Shown: in pieces, positions 32,296 through 50,225 of the stretch
Numbering within the stretch: position 1 is the stretch's first letter
Layout of the letters: the number at the start of each line of letters is the position of its first letter
DNA from: a virus
Taxonomy: Duplodnaviria > Heunggongvirae > Uroviricota > Caudoviricetes
Direction: 5' to 3' (one strand)
DNA: 64,000 bases
IMG/VR virus record: IMGVR_UViG_2627854282_000001
Location: 49,354-113,353 of that record
The notes under the pieces: model-generated
Told to the model about the DNA's origin: nothing
The model's database searches: none
What the model saw: the letters and a program-made list of their open reading frames with translations, nothing else
Program-made: the position numbers and the translations under genes

Positions 32296-33513
32296 CTACA
32301 TCAACAACGGCTGGATAGAGCCGTCCCCGAAAATCTGATCCATCGGCGTATCGGCTGTTGGCTCGTCACCATCCCAGCCGTTGGGCCATGTCTTGAGCGC
32401 GATCAGTTCGCGGATGCGCGCTTCTTCCTCGGCGTTGAGGATGTCAATTTCCGGTCTGCCGAGTGTCCGCGCCGCCTCATTGACCTCCGCCTGGATCGAC
32501 AGCACGCGATCGAGAGCCATCAGGCGGGCGTCGAACGTCAATGGCCCCATCCGCTGCTTGTTCTTTGCGGTCGCAATGTCACCATTGCTGTCGAGACCTG
32601 TCTTCTTCAGGCGATGGCGCGGTTCCCGGAGTTCGCGATAGAGCGGTTTCAAGCCGAGCAGCGGCGAGATATAGGACCAGGAAGGGACACGGATGACGGT
32701 CGAGAGACCGAGATCTTTCGCTGCCAGCGGGCACCCGTTGCAGCCGGTGCGGGCGTTGATCTCCTGAGCCTCATCACCGCCATAGGCATCGACCACTGCC
32801 GAGGTTTCCCACGCACCGTATTCCTTCATGCGCGCATAGACCTTCAGCCAGTCGAAGACATTGCAGACGCGCCAGTGAAGGATCGGTGCAAGCGTGGCGA
32901 TCCGGCCGCGGATGCCCTTGGCCTCTGGGACGACTTGCTGATACCAACCCTGCCCGCATTCGGCTCCGTCCTTGCCGCATGACATGGCAATACGGCCGTC
33001 GCGGATGGCGCTCTCGCCTTGGCGGACTCCGGTGATCATCAGGACCGAGCCGTCGAGTTCGTCGATGCGACGCTGCAGCGCCGCGGTCATCGGATCGACC
33101 TTGATTTGCCGTGTGCACCAGCGGAACGTGTTGTTGTTCGGCGGCGGAACACCGCGTCCGATCATGTAGACCAAGAATCGCTGGTCCATCGGGGCGCAGA
33201 CGACTTCGCAGTAGATGCCGCGGGCCCGAAGCCGATCTAGAAGTCGCGCCGCGGCGATCGCCAACGGCGGCAACTCCATGCGCGTATCGGCATAGAGCAC
33301 GGTGATTGTCTTCGGCGCCTGAAGCCGGCCCGCATCGATCAAGTGGATGATCACGGTCAACGTGGCGGTGCTGTCTTTCCCGCCGGAGAAAGCGAAAACC
33401 CAATGATCGTGCTGCGACCCATAGGCTTGCATGGACTGTAGAGTCAGCTGGACCGCCTCGTCGTAGACGAGCCGCTTCGATCCATCGAACAGTGTCGGCT
33501 GCCTCATAGCCAA
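32296..33513 (-). CDS. PAPS-reductase-family (DndC-like) adenine-nucleotide alpha-hydrolase protein (405 aa)
   Basis: VFAFSGGKDST PP-loop, plus conserved Cys (CGKDGAECGQGW; CNGCP) as in DndC-like proteins. Confidence 0.75.
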   Translation of the reverse strand: MAMRQPTLFDGSKRLVYDEAVQLTLQSMQAYGSQHDHWVFAFSGGKDSTATLTVIIHLIDAGRLQAPKTITVLYADTRMELPPLAIAAARLLDRLRARGIYCEVVCAPMDQRFLVYMIGRGVPPPNNNTFRWCTRQIKVDPMTAALQRRIDELDGSVLMITGVRQGESAIRDGRIAMSCGKDGAECGQGWYQQVVPEAKGIRGRIATLAPILHWRVCNVFDWLKVYARMKEYGAWETSAVVDAYGGDEAQEINARTGCNGCPLAAKDLGLSTVIRVPSWSYISPLLGLKPLYRELREPRHRLKKTGLDSNGDIATAKNKQRMGPLTFDARLMALDRVLSIQAEVNEAARTLGRPEIDILNAEEEARIRELIALKTWPNGWDGDEPTADTPMDQIFGDGSIQPLLM

Positions 33514-34611: not shown

Positions 34612-34936
34612 CGTAACCGCCGATCAGCTTGAGGTGCGGCGCGCTCTTCGGATGGTGGACATCAGGGACGCGCTCGGTGGCGCCTGGATGCATGTCGACG
34701 AGGAAGTCGGCGGCGCGCCAATCACCCAGGGCGAGATGATAGGCGTGCAGGTTCCGGAATTCGTCGGAGAGCATCCGGCGGAGCGCCGACCATGCCCCAG
34801 TCTCTTTCAGCTTGCGGACGCGCTTGTCCGCGGCGCCTTCCGGACGTTTGAGATCGAAGACGCCGACGTGATCGCCGACGCCGGGATAGTATTTGGCGAG
34901 GATGATATCCTCATCGAGCGTCCAGCGCTTACTCAT
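34604..34936 (-). CDS. hypothetical protein (110 aa)
   Basis: ORF between the methyltransferase and Cys-rich genes with overlapping ends. Confidence 0.45.
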   Translation of the reverse strand: MSKRWTLDEDIILAKYYPGVGDHVGVFDLKRPEGAADKRVRKLKETGAWSALRRMLSDEFRNLHAYHLALGDWRAADFLVDMHPGATERVPDVHHPKSAPHLKLIGGYDD

Positions 34937-37271
34937 GGGGGATGTTTCCCCTGTCGTCGACAGAGAGGGCGATGGCGACCTGCCTCACCCAGATCGGTTG
35001 GCTGGAAAGCATAAAAGTCTGCCCGGTCATCGCCAGCAGCAGCGTCGTTGCCATGACGCTGGCGATCTCGGCCGCGGCATCCGGAGGAACCGCGTTGCCG
35101 ATCCGCTCGCGCCAGGCTGAATCGGAGTTGCCGTCCAGCTTGAAGTCCGCGACCTCGTCCGGGTCGACCAGACTTTGCAGCGCGGCCAGTTCGAGGGTTG
35201 TGAACGGCCGATGCCAAGTGTTGTCGAGCGCGCGGATCACCGCCACGAGACGGTCTTCCGGCTTCGGGAGTTGGATCAGCGGCTCGGCCGTTGTTTCGCG
35301 CGGGTCGGCGACTGACCAGTGGCCGCGATCGTACTTGGCATAGCCGGGCACGGCGTAGCCGGTTCCCTCCCACGGCACGACGCCGTAGTGACCGCCGGTC
35401 TGGTAGTGATCACGCTTCGCGTTGAGCCCGACCGGACGAGGATCGGCGACTGAGAAGGCGCCGTTCGATGGCATTGTCTCGCCTTGAACGGTTCCGGTCG
35501 TATCATCGTACCCGTTGACGCCGTATGCGCCATTGCGCAGGTCTTCGATTGGGCGAGGGTCGGCTACGCTCAGAGCGCCGCCGGCGACATGCTTCGCGCC
35601 GGAGATGACCTTGGCAGAATCCTCCCAATCGGTGACGGCGAGGATGTTCTGGTGTGCGTTCTCACCGTAACCGGGCCTCGGATCAGCGACGGCGCCGCCG
35701 CCCGACAGGATCCTGGCACCCGAGACGACATTCGCCGGCTCCTCCCAGCCCTTGACGTGAAGCTTGCTGCCGTGAGCATTCTCGCCCCAATTCAACGACG
35801 GGTCGGCGACAGCATACGCGCCGTTGCCCGTGGTCGATGCGGCTATGACAGCGCCCGACGATTCCTGCATCTCGGTGACGCGATATTTCGTCTGCTTGTA
35901 GTCGTCGCGCTGCGAGGGACGCGGATCGGCGACGGCCAGACCGCCGGCCGGGCCGCCAGGACCGGCAACCGCCGGCGCCGAGCCAGCCCATGGCACAATC
36001 CGAAACGTGTTGTTGAAACGTGGCTTTCCCTGCATGCGCGGATCGGAGACCGCATACGGTCCCGTGCCCACCGAGACATCGCCTTTCACACAGGCCGCGG
36101 TCTGCTCCCATTTGCGAACGCCCAGCTGTACCGACTTCTCGTGGCCGTCGATTCGAGGGTCAGCGACGGAGAAGCGCCCCTGCTGTGGCGACCGCTGGCC
36201 GCGAACGAGCGATGCCGGCTCCTCCCATTTGCCGACGCCGAGAAGTCCCGTCCGATCGTCGGGGAAATTCTCTGGGTTCGGGTCGGCAACAGCAAAGGCG
36301 CCGTTCGTCGGCGTGGATCGACCGGCGACGACGCCGCTCGGATCCTCCCAGCGGTTGACCCCAAGCACGCCATGGTGCCAGTCGACATCCGGCAAGATGC
36401 CGAAATCCCGCAGCATGCCGTTTTCGACCGCCAGTTTGTTGAGCGATCGCCAGTCGGAACCGGCTTCGACGAAGGCGAGGCGCACCCAGGTCTTCCATTG
36501 CAGCGCTGGCATCCGGTGCATCGGGCCGCCGGCTGGATCGCCCGGCCGCGGCAGCTTGCCTATGACCTCGCCGACGCCGCGCAGCCGGCGCTGTTCCGGC
36601 TCATATAGGAACGGCGGCACCTTCGCTTCATGCCGCGCGACCATCAGGAAGCGCTTGCGGCTTTGGCCGAGGCCACCGATGACGCCGCAGTCGTGCGCGG
36701 TTTCACGGACCGCATATCCGTAGGAGCGAAGGAGCGCGATGATCTGGTCGAGCAGCTTGCGGCCGCGCTTCATGATCCGCGGCACATTCTCGAAGATGAT
36801 GAGCTCGGGCGGGTCGTCCTTCCAGGTTTCGAGCATCAGCCAGACGCCACGCAGCGTGAGCGCATTCAGCGCCTGGTATTTGTCGGTGATGCTGGATGCT
36901 TCGGGCAGAAGGCCGGAGAAGCCCTTGCATGGCGCCGAGAGGAAGACCGCATTCGGCCGTTCGCCATGTGCGGCCCGACGGATGTCGTCGATCGTGCATT
37001 CCCGCCAGCCCGCCGGCGGCTCGCGACCCCAGAAGGCTCGATACTGTTCGCGGCTGAAGAGATCGATGACGGTGCCCGGCACGCCGACGGCGCGCGTGAA
37101 ATCCCGGATGCCGGCCGGATCGCTGTCGACCCCGCCGATGCAGCGCCACTTGCCTTTCAGATTGCCGACGCGGGCAGTGCCCTTGTTGAAGCCCTTGCCG
37201 CCGCCGCCGAGGCCGCAGAAGAAATGGAAATGCGTGAACTCGACCTCGGCCGCCGCCCCGGATGCAATCAT
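34929..37271 (-). CDS. C5-cytosine DNA methyltransferase with ~480-aa tandem-repeat target-recognition region (780 aa)
   Basis: Motif I FHFFCGLGGGGKGF, IV SAPCKGFSG, VI IIFENVP, VIII SRKRFLMVA and X RERIGNAVPP. Between VIII and IX lie about 8 degenerate repeats: W-E-x-P-x-x-V-x-G-x6-8-G-x-[FY]-[AS]-V-[AS]-D-P-R. Confidence 0.8.
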   Translation of the reverse strand: MIASGAAAEVEFTHFHFFCGLGGGGKGFNKGTARVGNLKGKWRCIGGVDSDPAGIRDFTRAVGVPGTVIDLFSREQYRAFWGREPPAGWRECTIDDIRRAAHGERPNAVFLSAPCKGFSGLLPEASSITDKYQALNALTLRGVWLMLETWKDDPPELIIFENVPRIMKRGRKLLDQIIALLRSYGYAVRETAHDCGVIGGLGQSRKRFLMVARHEAKVPPFLYEPEQRRLRGVGEVIGKLPRPGDPAGGPMHRMPALQWKTWVRLAFVEAGSDWRSLNKLAVENGMLRDFGILPDVDWHHGVLGVNRWEDPSGVVAGRSTPTNGAFAVADPNPENFPDDRTGLLGVGKWEEPASLVRGQRSPQQGRFSVADPRIDGHEKSVQLGVRKWEQTAACVKGDVSVGTGPYAVSDPRMQGKPRFNNTFRIVPWAGSAPAVAGPGGPAGGLAVADPRPSQRDDYKQTKYRVTEMQESSGAVIAASTTGNGAYAVADPSLNWGENAHGSKLHVKGWEEPANVVSGARILSGGGAVADPRPGYGENAHQNILAVTDWEDSAKVISGAKHVAGGALSVADPRPIEDLRNGAYGVNGYDDTTGTVQGETMPSNGAFSVADPRPVGLNAKRDHYQTGGHYGVVPWEGTGYAVPGYAKYDRGHWSVADPRETTAEPLIQLPKPEDRLVAVIRALDNTWHRPFTTLELAALQSLVDPDEVADFKLDGNSDSAWRERIGNAVPPDAAAEIASVMATTLLLAMTGQTFMLSSQPIWVRQVAIALSVDDRGNIPHE
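35350..36400 (-). repeat. about 8 degenerate ~120-nt tandem repeats inside the methyltransferase gene
   Basis: Plus-strand units such as CGGGTCGGCGAC-N8-10-GCGCCGTT (reverse complement of the VADPR core) recur about every 120 nt, near 35433, 35550, 35680, 35800, 35920, 36040, 36160 and 36280. Confidence 0.6.
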
Positions 37272-37675: not shown

Positions 37676-38212
37676 TCATCGCCTGCGCCGCGGCAGCCCT
37701 AGATGCGCCTTGCGCGCGTGGTACTTGCAATATGGCGGAATCCCGCCCGTGGCGGCGCCGCAGAAATAGAAATCGCTGTGCTGCGGATCGCCGATCGGCC
37801 AGCGGCATGTCTTATCCGTCAACTCTGGCATCGAAAGCTTCAGTGGCTCCGGCTCAGGCAGATCGACCACCGTTTCGGGTCGATCATCCTTCTCGAAGAG
37901 CGGGTCGTCATCATCCTCGATGACGGCCTTCCTTCTTGCCTTTGGCGGTTCCGGCTGTTTCGCCGGCAGCCGCGGATTGATCGGCTTCTCCTTTGCCTTC
38001 TTGGCGGGCCGCGGTGCGGGCTCGGCGTTGCCGATGAGGCGAGGCAACGTGATCTTGCTCCGCAGCGGCACCTTTGCGCGCTCGGCGAGCCCGATGATGG
38101 CATTCCTGGTGCAGCCGCCAATCTCGGCGGCGATCTGGCTGGCGCTGAGCCCATCCTTGACCCCTTGCTGGATGCGCTTGATCCGCTCCTCTCGCGAAAT
38201 CTTATCCCACAT
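37676..38212 (-). CDS. gcrA: GcrA cell-cycle regulator homolog (178 aa)
   Basis: N-terminal GLSASQIAAEIGGCTRNAIIGLAERAKV, a Pro/Lys-rich linker and C-terminal CRWPIGDP...FCG...YCKYH match GcrA family architecture. Confidence 0.75.
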   Translation of the reverse strand: MWDKISREERIKRIQQGVKDGLSASQIAAEIGGCTRNAIIGLAERAKVPLRSKITLPRLIGNAEPAPRPAKKAKEKPINPRLPAKQPEPPKARRKAVIEDDDDPLFEKDDRPETVVDLPEPEPLKLSMPELTDKTCRWPIGDPQHSDFYFCGAATGGIPPYCKYHARKAHLGLPRRRR

Positions 38213-40165: not shown

Positions 40166-40846
40166 TCATGCGGCGGTTGACGCCGGTTTGGCGTTCAGGA
40201 GTCCCGTCTGGTTTCCCCATGAAACCCAGCCGGGCCGATCCGCTCTCGAGAAAAGCTCGACATAAGGACCGTCAAAGAGTGTCTCGATGCGCTCGTATTG
40301 TTCATCCGGTTTCTGGCTGTGGACGCGCCGCGGCTGCCGGATCGCGTCGAGAGGCATTGCCTCGATAAAATCTCGGACGCTGCGCACGCCGACGGGAACA
40401 ACGGCCGGCCCGAGCATGTCGCTCTCGATGGGCTGACGCAGCTGCGGATCGCCCTTCATGCAAAGGACGCAGGGTTCCAGATTCTTGCGAGTGCCGTACC
40501 CGCCTCCGAAGGCGTACTTGCCGGTCTTGGGATTGTATTTCAGCCACTCCCAGCCGAGCCCGCCATAATCCAGGCCAAGAGCTCTGATCACCCGGGCCCA
40601 TTCCATCATCAGCGGCCATGTGAACCAGATGAACACTGCACAGTCGTCTGCCATCAGTGCATCGATCGGGACCGAGCAAATCTCCTCGATCGAGAGACAG
40701 TCGTAATGCCGCTGCGGAGCCTTTCCCTGCCCTTTGTCGGACCAGTGCTCGAACTCCCACGGGAAGTCGATCAGCATGGTCTTGAAGCCGCCGGTGGGAC
40801 GAATTTCGGCGAACTGCTTGGTAACGAGGGCGACGTCCAGGCTCAT
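40166..40846 (-). CDS. MT-A70-family N6-adenine DNA methyltransferase (226 aa)
   Basis: LIDFPWEF (DPPW-type motif) and C-terminal HSQKPDEQYERIETLFDGPYVELFSRADRPGWVSWGNQ. Confidence 0.8.
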   Translation of the reverse strand: MSLDVALVTKQFAEIRPTGGFKTMLIDFPWEFEHWSDKGQGKAPQRHYDCLSIEEICSVPIDALMADDCAVFIWFTWPLMMEWARVIRALGLDYGGLGWEWLKYNPKTGKYAFGGGYGTRKNLEPCVLCMKGDPQLRQPIESDMLGPAVVPVGVRSVRDFIEAMPLDAIRQPRRVHSQKPDEQYERIETLFDGPYVELFSRADRPGWVSWGNQTGLLNAKPASTAA

Positions 40847-41100
40847 GCCGGCGTCTTTCGGATCATGACGACGTTGCCGCGTTGCCGCGCGATCCGGTAA
40901 CCGTTTGAGGGACCGGCGTCCTCAATCTGACACAGGTTGAAGTAGAAGGAGGTGTAGGCGATGAGCCGGTTCAACCCCTTCGGGATGAATCCTGCTTCTG
41001 CCATTAGATTCTCAATGGTTTCCCATTGCCCCGCATGAGCTTCAAGCGCAAGAAAGAGGCGGTCCTTCGGGCTCAGCAGGCGATCTGGTATCGACATCAT
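40843..41100 (-). CDS. hypothetical protein (85 aa)
   Basis: ATG at 41098-41100 overlaps the sigma-factor stop (ATGA); MMSIPDRLLSPKDRLFLALEAHAG... Confidence 0.45.
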   Translation of the reverse strand: MMSIPDRLLSPKDRLFLALEAHAGQWETIENLMAEAGFIPKGLNRLIAYTSFYFNLCQIEDAGPSNGYRIARQRGNVVMIRKTPA

Positions 41101-41996
41101 GCCGCGCACCGCTTCTTGTCCCGGCCCCGGCGATCGGGCAGCCGGCTTCGCTTGCCGGTGAGACGCGCCTGGAGATAACCGAAGGCATCCTTCTCGACTT
41201 GGCGGATGCGTTCCTTCGAAACGGCGAAATGGTCGCCGAGCTCCTCCAGCGTCGCCATGTCGTCGGAGAGCCATCGCGCTTGGATGATCACCTTCTGCCG
41301 ATCGGAGAGATCGCGTATCGCGGCGCGCAACTTCTTCGACATCCGTTCGCCATCGATGGTTTGCTCGACAAACTCATCGGGGAGAGGATCTGTCGACGGC
41401 ATCGCGTCGCCGAAGGTAATCCCACCGGCATCGTTCGTGTCGGCGATGGCGGCCACCGGCATGTCCAGAGAATAGGTCGGGTGGGCCAGCCGCTCCGCCA
41501 TGCTCGCCACCTGCTGAGCGGTGACGCCGATGAGCTCGGCCACTCTTGCCGTGATCTGGTCGCGGTGCCACGCCGGATATTGAGCCTCGACGCGCCGGTA
41601 GACGCTGCGGCATTGGAAGAAGAGCCGTTTGCCCGCCACTGTCGAACTCGAACCGACGACGGAGAAGTTCCGGAAAATGAATTCCTGGATCGCGGAACGC
41701 ACCCACCAGCTTGCGTATGTCCCGAAACGGATGCCCAACTCCGGATCGAATCTCCGGGCCGCCTGGAGCAGCCCGAGCTGACCTTCCTGTTTCAGGTCAT
41801 CATCGGGGAGGCCGTAGTTGCGGTATCGGCGTGCCATGCCGCCGACAAGCGGGGTGTAAGCAAGGATCAGCTTATGGAGCGCTTTCTCATCATGATGGTC
41901 CCGCCAGCGCCGGGCGAGATCCATCTCGGCGTCGCGACCGAGCATCGGATGACGGCGACGGCCGTCGAACGGCACGTAGGGTGATGATGATTGCAT
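41097..41996 (-). CDS. sigma-70-family RNA polymerase sigma factor (299 aa)
   Basis: Region 2 LILAYTPLVGGMARRY...DLKQEGQLGLLQAARRFDPELGIRFGTYASWWVRSAIQEFI and region 4 LSDRQKVIIQARW...ATLEELGDHFAVSKERIRQVEKDA. ATG at 41994-41996. Confidence 0.8.
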   Translation of the reverse strand: MQSSSPYVPFDGRRRHPMLGRDAEMDLARRWRDHHDEKALHKLILAYTPLVGGMARRYRNYGLPDDDLKQEGQLGLLQAARRFDPELGIRFGTYASWWVRSAIQEFIFRNFSVVGSSSTVAGKRLFFQCRSVYRRVEAQYPAWHRDQITARVAELIGVTAQQVASMAERLAHPTYSLDMPVAAIADTNDAGGITFGDAMPSTDPLPDEFVEQTIDGERMSKKLRAAIRDLSDRQKVIIQARWLSDDMATLEELGDHFAVSKERIRQVEKDAFGYLQARLTGKRSRLPDRRGRDKKRCAA

Positions 41997-42048
41997 TCCC
42001 CGTGCCTCTCCCAAAGCCACGGTGCGCGCCGCCGCCCGGCGCCGGCGA

Positions 42049-42417
42049 TCAGATGTGGGATGCGAGCTGGGTACGGGCGCCGTCGAGCGCGCGGATCGTC
42101 TCGTTGACCTGGAAAAGTTCCGCCTTGTATTCGGCGAGACGGTCGTCTCGCAGCGTCTTCGCTGCAGAGACCGCCTTCTCAAAATCGGCGTTCGCCGACG
42201 CCATGTTCTGCTCGAGCCGTGAACCCTGACGGCGAAGACGGTCGATAGAATTGACCAATCCGTTCTTCGCGGCGGCGATAAGGGTCCTGGCCGTTGAAGC
42301 CGGCGCTGCCTTGTCCAATTCCTGGTCGGCCAGTGCCAACGAGATATCGTCAGCCACCTGGTCATGAGTTTCATCGGCTTCCTTCACGACGCGAATCTTG
42401 GCCTGCTGTGTAGCCAT
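42049..42417 (-). CDS. hypothetical coiled-coil protein (122 aa)
   Basis: ORF upstream of the sigma gene; alanine-rich helical composition. Confidence 0.45.
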   Translation of the reverse strand: MATQQAKIRVVKEADETHDQVADDISLALADQELDKAAPASTARTLIAAAKNGLVNSIDRLRRQGSRLEQNMASANADFEKAVSAAKTLRDDRLAEYKAELFQVNETIRALDGARTQLASHI

Positions 42418-49173: not shown

Positions 49174-50225
49174 CTGAAGCTGTCCGCCACGACCCTGGAA
49201 TCTATTTCGGTATGAGCGATACCGAGTATCACGCCGATGACGCGCTCGGTTCCTCGCGCATCAAGGCGATCGCCGTCGACCCCTATGAGGCGCAGTTCGA
49301 TCACCTCTACGGCGAGGACAAGGACACCGACGCTATGATCTTCGGCAGCGCGCTCCATGCCCGCATGCTCGAGGGCCGCGCCGCCTTGGAGGCGAAGTTC
49401 TGCAAGGAATTCGACAAATCGTCGATCCCGGAGGGCGCCCTCGACACCGTGGCCGACATCCGGGCGTGGCTCGACAAATACGATCAGCGCGGCATCAGCG
49501 CGAAGAACAAGGCCGACCTCATCAAGATCGTACAGCAGATCGATCCCGACCAGCCGATCGTCGAGGTGATCAAGGCGAAGTGGGAGAAGGACAACGAGGG
49601 GAAGATTGCGCTGAAGCCTAAGCGCTGGGCCCAGATCGATATCGCCGCCCGCTGGGTGCAGCGCGATCCCCTGCTCTCCGCCGTCATGACCGACGGCACC
49701 TTCAACGCCGGCGCTCCAGAAGTCTCGATCTTCTACGAGGACCGCGGTGTCCGCCTCAAGGCACGGTTCGACCGGCTGCTCCGGCACGCCATCGTCGACG
49801 TGAAGAGCTTCGCGCCAATGTTCCCGGGGCCGATCGAGACCACGGCGGTCAAGACGATTGACCGCATGCGCTACGACATCCAGGCGGCCGACTACTTCCG
49901 AGCGTGGGGGCACGCGAAGGAACTGCACAAAGCCGGCCTGGTATTCGGCGAGGAGCCGCACCCGGGGTTCCTCGCCGAAGCCTTCGACCGCGATGAGCCG
50001 AAATGGATCTGGATCATGGTCAAGACCAAGGGGGCGCCGCAGCCGCTCGTCATCGACTGGCAGGCGAAGTTTGCCAAGGCTGCAGCCGCCGAGCGGGTGG
50101 AACGCGCCATCGACGAATACATCCGCCTTCGCGACGAGCATGGCGAAGACCAAGAATGGCCGCCGATGCGGCCGGCCATGACCCTGGAAGACCAAGACCT
50201 CCCCTCATTCTTTGGGCGCAGCTGA
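49170..50225 (+). CDS. PD-(D/E)xK-superfamily phage exonuclease (351 aa)
   Basis: FGSALHARMLEG, then D...IVDVKS (D/E-x-K core), typical of YqaJ/RecE-like phage exonucleases; adjacent to an SSAP-like gene. Confidence 0.7.
   Translation: MTEAVRHDPGIYFGMSDTEYHADDALGSSRIKAIAVDPYEAQFDHLYGEDKDTDAMIFGSALHARMLEGRAALEAKFCKEFDKSSIPEGALDTVADIRAWLDKYDQRGISAKNKADLIKIVQQIDPDQPIVEVIKAKWEKDNEGKIALKPKRWAQIDIAARWVQRDPLLSAVMTDGTFNAGAPEVSIFYEDRGVRLKARFDRLLRHAIVDVKSFAPMFPGPIETTAVKTIDRMRYDIQAADYFRAWGHAKELHKAGLVFGEEPHPGFLAEAFDRDEPKWIWIMVKTKGAPQPLVIDWQAKFAKAAAAERVERAIDEYIRLRDEHGEDQEWPPMRPAMTLEDQDLPSFFGRS

Follow-up and report, generated by a model that had tools for sequence, protein, structure and literature searches.

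The stretch of viral DNA described here (the window; 64,000 nucleotides, positions 49,354 to 113,353 of IMG/VR record IMGVR_UViG_2627854282_000001) encodes a 780-residue C5-cytosine DNA methyltransferase (C5-MTase) in which nine tandem cassettes of about 40 amino acids lie between catalytic motifs VIII and IX, the slot of the target-recognising domain (TRD) in C5-MTases. We propose that this is an orphan prophage C5-MTase whose TRD has been expanded into nine alternative recognition cassettes to give a multispecific enzyme, and we put the probability of this reading at about one half. Among the relatives of the enzyme the cassettes fall into discrete types that combine a constant scaffold with type-specific loops, and they are gained, lost and exchanged as whole units. 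This is what would be expected of a multi-TRD enzyme under arms-race selection.

The catalytic domain

Judged by its motifs and predicted fold, the 780-residue protein is a bona fide C5-cytosine DNA methyltransferase. It matches Pfam family PF00145 (C-5 cytosine DNA methylase) over residues 93–218 (E = 1.5e-13), and a construct with the array trimmed to one unit aligned to positions 46–322 of the 324 in the profile (E = 9e-15). Motifs I, IV, VI, VIII, IX and X follow one another in collinear order. In an alignment of 94 homologues, in which the invariance of motif residues was judged, G20 and G22 of motif I (FFCGLGGG, F17–G24) are invariant, as are P114, C115, K116 and G117 in the segment S112-A-P114-C115-K-G-F-S119 that holds the motif IV nucleophile; E161-N162-V163 (motif VI), Q203-S-R205-K-R207 (VIII), R688..Q699 (IX) and G725-N726-A-V-P729 (X) are invariant or nearly so. 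AlphaFold2 (AF2) models the catalytic domain with a predicted local distance difference test score (pLDDT) of about 90 (80–97 for residues 8–250 and 690–750), and Foldseek searches with this model returned DNMT1/MET1, the CP-933R prophage MTase 3g7u, DNMT2 and M.HhaI at a probability of 1.00. A preliminary description of this DNA, made from the letters alone, stated that all catalytic motifs are present and collinear, and the Pfam match, the invariant residues and the confident AF2 domain bear this out.

Two conserved segments flank the array. The one before it contains the invariant residues H252, R253, Q258, W262 and D273-W274-R275 and is predicted to be partly helical; it is possibly a fixed piece of the small domain. 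The C-terminal part begins with a conserved linker, LP.P.DRLVAVIRALD, which is followed by motif IX, motif X (GNAVPP) and a C-terminal helix. The coordinates of these features are shown in Table 1.

Table 1. Features of the C5-MTase gene, with residues of the protein and nucleotide positions in the window.
Feature	Residues	Position	Strand	Support or remarks
C5-cytosine DNA methyltransferase coding sequence		34929..37271	-	complete open reading frame, 780 aa
N-terminal catalytic half	1-215	36627..37271	-	Pfam, invariant columns, AF2 pLDDT 80-97, Foldseek
Motif I	17-24	37200-37223	-	
Motif IV PC	112-119	36915-36938	-	
Motif VI ENV	160-166	36774-36794	-	
Motif VIII QxRxR	203-207	36651-36665	-	
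Conserved pre-array segment	216-291	36399..36626	-	invariant residues, AF2
Array of nine tandem ~40-aa cassettes	292-658	35298..36398	-	types B-L-G-C-A-I-E-B-D
Unit 1	292-332	36276..36398	-	type B
Unit 2	333-373	36153..36275	-	type L
Unit 3	374-412	36036..36152	-	type G
Unit 4	413-451	35919..36035	-	type C; in 121/121 close homologues
Unit 5	452-492	35796..35918	-	type A; in 121/121 close homologues; M replaces Trp
Unit 6	493-532	35676..35795	-	type I
Unit 7	533-573	35553..35675	-	type E
Unit 8	574-612	35436..35552	-	type B (GE..P.NG subtype)
Unit 9	613-658	35298..35435	-	type D; always terminal unit in close homologues
C-terminal part	659-780	34932..35297	-	Pfam profile 271-322, invariants, AF2 pLDDT 73-93
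Motif IX	688-700	35172-35210	-	
Motif X GNAVPP	725-730	35082-35099	-	

Anatomy of the cassette array

The units of the array are 39–46 residues long, and each closes with [SA]-V-[AS]-D-P-[RNS], the [VS][AS]DP anchors falling at residues 328, 369, 408, 447, 488, 528, 569, 608 and 654. All nine score between 36 and 58 bits against the hidden Markov model (HMM) of the unit, while pairs of units are 24–52% identical to one another. Autocorrelation with BLOSUM scores peaks at lags 39, 41, 80 and 120, with values of −0.02 to −0.17, relative to a mean maximum of −0.58 ± 0.06 in 500 shuffles. The array is rich in Gly, Pro, Ala and Ser, its hydrophobic content is 24.5% as compared to 32% in the catalytic halves, and its net charge is −6 over 367 residues, with single units ranging from −4 to +3. 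From one unit to the next the linkers vary in length, contain many alignment gaps and have a high content of Pro, Gly, Asp and Glu.

The preliminary description had counted about eight units in an insertion of about 480 residues. The length was close, the gap being about 475 residues with the array itself occupying 367, but the number of units is nine. It had also seen the protein repeats mirrored in DNA repeats of about 120 nt. A spacing of 117, 120 or 123 nt is indeed present, although only between patches of 15–46 nt with 60–88% identity; Tandem Repeats Finder found no tandem array of about 120 nt in the DNA, and DNA autocorrelation at lags 117–123, 240, 243 and 360 is scarcely above that of codon-shuffled controls. 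The repeat at the DNA level is old and degenerate.

Cassette types and their turnover

Comparison of 920 units from 121 proteins distinguishes about 16 discrete types, and about 70 recurrent types are found among 1,875 units from 272 proteins. The scaffold columns V14, W17, V24, G33 and the closing [SA]VADPR are near-invariant across types. Columns 7–11 and 22–35 have a mean entropy below 1.2 bits within a type and above 2 bits between types, and are rich in N, Q, R, K, S, T and G. One of these type-specific segments lies before the first conserved Val and the other between 'T-V-T-G' and 'G-x-x-S-V'.

Cassette content differs between very close relatives, and architecture is different in 62% of the pairs of proteins whose catalytic domains are at least 95% identical. 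The homologues P0016 and P0078, for example, share their first 285 residues exactly, although the former reads BFGCAED and the latter BFCAD. In pair alignments the gain or loss of a 41-residue unit coincides precisely with the VADPR junction, a chimeric unit has the head of type F and the tail of type G joined within the scaffold, and the terminal cassette is replaced between flanks that are 100% identical. These unit-precise indels, scaffold-joined chimeras and terminal swaps indicate that turnover is by recombination, with the conserved scaffold providing the crossover sites. Such natural deletions, insertions, swaps and chimeras occur in proteins that are otherwise 94–100% identical, and indicate that changes of cassette are tolerated at the level of structure. 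Cassette variation was seen between genomes and not within one genome. The C5-MTase gene is flanked neither by inverted repeats nor by a recombinase gene or silent cassettes, and no further unit copies or silent cassettes were found in the rest of the window.

The order of units is mostly kept, with B/JH first, C-A central and D last. All 121 close homologues have types C and A, and D is always the last unit, while the remainder occur in more than 60 combinations. This order bears on an alternative explanation, that the cassettes act together and form an open-ended domain of repeats, a solenoid or beads on the DNA, which tracks along it, with relaxed, short-motif, processive or long-composite-site recognition; unit gain and loss would then tune affinity or footprint and not discrete specificities. 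The regular period of 39–41 residues and the conserved hydrophobic and Gly scaffold are typical of structural repeat proteins, the largely fixed order is in keeping with such a domain, and the universality of C, A and D points to a core that the enzyme cannot do without. We nonetheless consider collective action unlikely. Whole units are found precisely inserted even between C and A (CIA, CNA and CIKA), which argues against strict packing of neighbours, and the linkers are of the variable, gap-rich kind noted above. Furthermore, the AF2 models show no packing of repeats, and the array is net acidic, unlike domains that track DNA non-specifically. The preliminary description had itself offered a non-catalytic DNA-scanning or scaffold array as its alternative, and this is weakened by the same net charge, by the variable copy number and by the polar loop residues conserved within types. 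As to the shape of the array, a closed beta-propeller is ruled out by a copy number that runs from 4 to 12 across the family and differs even between proteins with identical catalytic domains. A rigid closed repeat fold of any kind is not supported by the AF2 predictions, in which repeats do not pack, or by the variable copy number, with which an open, flexible solenoid would be compatible.

Distribution of the family

A homology search with the 780-residue protein returned more than 6,800 homologues. The best 120 of these are 50–94% identical to it, derive mostly from Rhizobiales and have 5–11 units, with lengths that step by about 40 residues. A search of 1.84 billion representative proteins with the unit profile gave 551 clusters, formed at 50% identity, with E ≤ 1e-3, of which 211 had E ≤ 1e-30; both catalytic halves are present, together with 4–11 units, in 108 of the 150 clusters listed, the other listed clusters being fragments. 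From these searches the repeat appears to be essentially confined to this C5-MTase family. The preliminary description had proposed that repeat number be compared across relatives; it ranges from 4 to 12 units per protein across the family, and differs even between proteins with identical catalytic domains.

One apparent use of the repeat outside a methyltransferase was rejected. P0124, a metagenomic protein of 614 residues, has a GcrA domain joined directly to nine units without the catalytic N-terminus, but its C-terminus is not in frame. It is probably a chimera of the adjacent GcrA and MTase genes, due to a deletion or frameshift, and not a new functional architecture. In P0049, P0108, P0125, P0210 and P0257, an insertion of about 270–290 residues with Hint and LAGLIDADG domains is situated just after motif IV. 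It is an intein with a homing endonuclease, which splits the catalytic domain of the longest members of the family.

Homologues are encoded by Sinorhizobium phage PBC5 (63% identity), by Pseudomonas phages phiCTX (orf41) and H66, and in about 30 more Pseudomonas phage records. A tblastn search with the query matched only Pseudomonas, Sinorhizobium phage PBC5, Citexvirus, Marinobacter and Achromobacter. The phiCTX orf41 product, annotated as 'hypothetical protein' (locus L001, 2920–4698), has the cassettes B-F-A-C'-D. Here A precedes a divergent C-like unit that closes with 'VEDPR', the reverse of the C-A order of the Rhizobiales, and therefore even the 'universal' cassettes are permutable.

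A second lineage of large phage C5-MTases

We considered whether the 5-methylcytosine MTases of about 700 residues described by Dziewit, Decewicz and Radlinska belong to the same family. Dziewit et al. 2014 (PMC3925955) report two Paracoccus aminophilus enzymes with 'relaxed' specificity, giving partial protection at AGCT, GGCC, CCGG, CCWGG, CCSGG, GCGC, ACGT, CTCGAG, CAGCTG and others, with CGCG, GATC, CATG and CCATGG not protected. As a proxy for these enzymes we used a close relative from P. siganidrum recovered via a published primer sequence; the reverse primer has no match to the proxy gene. In tblastn searches the P. siganidrum protein matches RR1-A, phi2LM21_p23, ARM81mr/ld and Pyei1, which are the phages named in the papers, and its list has no named phage in common with that of the query. 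The N-terminal and C-terminal HMMs of the query family score no more than 0.2 bits on the P. siganidrum homologue and the unit HMM does not match it. The HMMs and the phage homologues thus place these enzymes elsewhere, and their identification with the present family was rejected. Because they form a separate catalytic lineage, the relaxed-specificity data are not transferable to the query family.

This other lineage consists of C5-MTases of 565–746 residues (loci L005, 2064–4301 on the minus strand, and L007–L011), with members in a P. siganidrum prophage, Pyei1, RR1-A, RcapNL, phi2LM21 (p23) and ARM81mr (p29). They contain 3–9 irregularly spaced '[ED]P..T[IV]T[AG]' modules, the types of which recur in differing combinations. 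A reading of the relaxed-specificity data in terms of a module array is absent from the available portions of the Dziewit and Decewicz texts. Multi-module C5-MTases with broad protection do exist in proteobacterial phages, and their phenotype touches on the collective explanation set out above: 'relaxed specificity' with partial protection only (PMC3925955) speaks for it by analogy, but the sparing of CGCG, GATC, CATG and CCATGG indicates that methylation in that lineage is not context-free.

An alignment by hhalign places the query unit core 'W..P..T-V-T-G' in register with the modules of the other lineage, at a score of 12.8 where the column-shuffle null is 5.6 ± 1.4. The match is weak (P = 0.0033, probability 9.7%; of 300 column shuffles, one scored as high), and an hhalign comparison of the unit profile with the single full-length P. 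siganidrum protein was not significant. A common origin of the query unit and these modules in one ancestral TRD core is plausible.

Are the units target-recognising domains?

The preliminary description suggested that the array might resemble the several short TRDs carried in tandem by multispecific C5-MTases of Bacillus phages. The position in the TRD slot, the location in a phage module and the behaviour of the cassettes all fit such an enzyme, whereas homology to the TRDs of the SPR and rho11s enzymes was not detectable. We gather here the observations that weigh against the multispecific proposal. Modelling of the query by AF2 with a 94-sequence multiple sequence alignment (MSA) gave an array with pLDDT 22–50 and no secondary structure, and the same values were obtained for the array of a minimal five-unit B-F-C-A-D homologue with a register-clean 57-sequence MSA. 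The comparison of modelled units with known TRDs that had been suggested thus yielded an array without a predicted fold in both runs, and the region could be partly disordered. Between the unit profile and the full-length rho11s and SPR enzymes, hhalign probabilities are 0.09–0.15%, below 0.2%, and the unit HMM does not match the SPR or rho11s enzymes. An anchored-profile comparison with the Bacillus TRDs scored 10.0 over a null of 6.4 ± 1.5, but was beaten by the reversed control at 11.7. None of the PDB sequence searches, whether made with the protein itself or with the family or unit profile, gave a meaningful match. The mostly fixed order and the universality of types C, A and D count on the same side, and a partly structural role for these three explains their universality as well or better. 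It is quite possible, in a mixed model, that C, A and D are structural and that specificity comes only from the variable cassettes.

Two similarities at the level of pattern may be set beside these results. Counted from the V to T[ILV]T, the register of the unit core 'V-x2-W-x3-[AS]-G-T-V-T-G' equals that of the Bacillus 'V-Y-x3-G-L-S-P-T-[IL]-T-T'. In addition, and in favour of the proposal, the Pfam alignment can be carried from motif IX back as far as the Trp in units D and A. A 'W..PS.T[IV]..' segment before motif IX is common in many C5-MTases, and the extension is weakly consistent with it, but it gains only 1.4–1.9 bits and fails for units 1 and 7, which again counts against the units being TRDs.

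The low AF2 confidence, together with a composition that is rich in G, P, A and S and poor in hydrophobic residues, fits a flexible region, and could mean that the array is not the determinant of specificity at all. Recognition would then reside in the flanks (residues 216–291 and 659–687), perhaps with the universal units, and the cassettes would serve as a spacer or tether, as a protein interaction surface (for the replisome or for capsid targeting) or as a decoy for host defence. The flanks are highly conserved with many invariant residues, the units have no demonstrable homology to characterised TRDs, and fast diversification fits a surface targeted by host factors, which would also be under arms-race selection. 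However, the array is located exactly in the TRD slot and there is no other variable segment of TRD size, while the flanks vary too little from host to host to account for a diversity of specificities. The repeat is never found outside this MTase family, unlike a general interaction module; its type-specific residues are conserved, polar and of the kind that contacts bases; and the unit is weakly similar, in register, to P..T[IV]T[AG], the core of recognition modules in C5-MTases. We judge this explanation to be somewhat less likely still than collective action of the array.

In the other lineage, Phi2LM21_p23 was inactive in E. coli (PMC5537653); this too weighs against a multispecific enzyme. 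It would agree with a decaying or inactive methyltransferase whose repeats are a neutral low-complexity expansion, as would the degenerate repeats in the DNA. Such decay is very improbable for the gene in the window, which has an intact open reading frame that is translationally coupled to its neighbours. The catalytic residues are invariant in the 94 homologues, the unit types are position-specifically conserved in hundreds of proteins, all indels are in frame and unit-precise, and the region is not of low complexity.

Gene and prophage context

The stop codon of the upstream gene shares an ATGA overlap with the start codon of the C5-MTase gene, and the 3' end of the latter overlaps the ATG of the downstream gene by 8 nt. 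The C5-MTase gene is therefore translationally coupled to its neighbours, as a member of a co-directional operon. This operon is part of the replication/early module of the phage, which includes genes for a DnaB-like helicase, a primase, a ParB-like protein, an SNF2 helicase, a PAPS-reductase-like protein, a GP88/DUF7227 protein, the C5-MTase, a GcrA homologue, a RuvC-like resolvase, an MT-A70-type MTase and a sigma-70-like factor.

The GcrA homologue (37676–38212; PF07750, 5.7e-30), the small MT-A70-type DNA methyltransferase (40166–40846; PF05063, 5.5e-18) and the sigma-70-like factor (41097–42374) are all encoded on the minus strand. Since it has both a GcrA and a probable CcrM-like adenine MTase, the phage may mimic the methylation-dependent circuit that governs the cell cycle of alphaproteobacteria. 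At a distance of 1.4 kb, the C5-MTase gene is followed downstream by the PAPS-reductase-like gene (32296–33513, minus strand; phrog_12882, 2e-221), and in Rhizobium phage RR1-A a PAPS-reductase gene (locus L008, 2448–2739) directly follows the multi-module C5-MTase gene of the other lineage. The association of large phage C5-MTases with a PAPS-reductase gene is thus a recurring one.

A proposed model for multispecific methylation

If the enzyme is multispecific as we propose, a simple model can be offered. The constant scaffold would dock each cassette alike on the catalytic domain, with the two type-specific polar segments of the cassette reading the DNA bases. One cassette would be engaged per binding event, as in the multispecific enzymes of Bacillus phages, and each would direct methylation of its own short motif. 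Replicating phage DNA could in this way be shielded from many host restriction systems by a single gene. Pressure from host restriction would drive the diversification of cassettes, and unequal or homologous recombination, crossing over within the conserved codons of the scaffold, would reshuffle the repertoire. More tentatively, the roughly 70 or more cassettes of about 40 residues may constitute a natural combinatorial library on one scaffold, in which each has a short target of its own and recombination joins them in series, so that a single enzyme would methylate nine or more motifs; we hold this version to be somewhat less probable than multispecificity as such.

Multispecific cytosine methyltransferases are a textbook form of phage counter-defence, and to our knowledge the principle has been known for about 40 years from Bacillus phages only. 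Full-text searches of the literature yielded no account of the repeat array, target specificity or methylomes of the present family, which databases label 'DNA cytosine methyltransferase' or 'hypothetical protein', and the cassette array is apparently undescribed. Reviews from 2022 and 2025 credit tandem TRD arrays only to phages of the Bacillus SPbeta group, with few recognition domains. If our proposal holds, the principle would extend to thousands of proteobacterial prophages, including those of phiCTX and PBC5, phages known for long in which the gene bears the label 'hypothetical' or that of a generic methylase, with up to 12 modules per enzyme and a large, fast-recombining repertoire of cassettes. 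Multispecificity would then be widespread, far more elaborate in proteobacterial phages, and represented in at least two independent lineages. Prophage and transduced DNA could be resistant to many restriction systems at once, and could be sensitised to methyl-dependent ones. Assignment of cassettes to motifs from natural variants could lead to a modular recognition code for C5-methyltransferases. The enzymes could also be a source of new 5-methylcytosine specificities, and their regular scaffold an engineering platform for programmable multi-site methylation.

Comparison with known systems

Monospecific C5-MTases such as M.HaeIII and M.HhaI (PF00145) have the same catalytic fold and motifs I–X as the enzyme described here, but a single TRD in place of the array. 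The exchange of TRDs in Type I HsdS subunits and the arrays of TALE proteins offer an analogy only: both have a constant scaffold with few variable specificity residues, recombination between conserved repeat flanks and a variable repeat number, although their folds and enzymology are unrelated to those of the query family.

The relaxed-specificity set of about 700 residues (P. aminophilus JCM7686_0772 and JCM7686_2655, Phi2LM21_p23, ARM81mr_p29/ARM81ld_p31, RR1-A, Pyei1 and RcapNL) is closer in setting, as these too are large C5-MTases whose genes lie in replication modules, here of phages and prophages of Proteobacteria. They share recurring modules in the variable region and, in RR1-A as in the window, a nearby PAPS-reductase-like gene. 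Their modules are 32–53 residues apart, irregular and without the VADPR scaffold, and they belong to a separate catalytic lineage. In the available parts of their papers the authors reported relaxed specificity and no module array.

A further parallel is with temperate phages of Bacillus, in which several TRDs are arrayed in one C5-MTase (PMC12707154, PMC8936443). This set comprises M.SPRI, M.phi3TI, M.rho11sI, M.H2I and M.SPbetaI, and also M.phiBssHII. In common with the query family these are orphan phage C5-MTases with tandem modules of about 40–50 residues between motifs VIII and IX, a single catalytic core that serves all modules, module content that varies among related phages, and a presumed role in protection from several host restriction-modification systems. 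At the level of pattern, the register V-x8-T-[ILV]-T ... G ... [AS]-V is shared as well. The two differ in that their modules have no detectable homology and their catalytic domains are of different lineages. The query family has 4–12 modules as compared to the 2–4 identifiable in the Bacillus enzymes, a strictly regular period with invariant [SA]VADPR unit ends, about 70 module types and hosts among the Proteobacteria. The principle would be the one seen in the Bacillus-phage multispecific MTases, whereas the cassette system is far more regular, larger and faster-evolving, and is built on an unrelated catalytic lineage.

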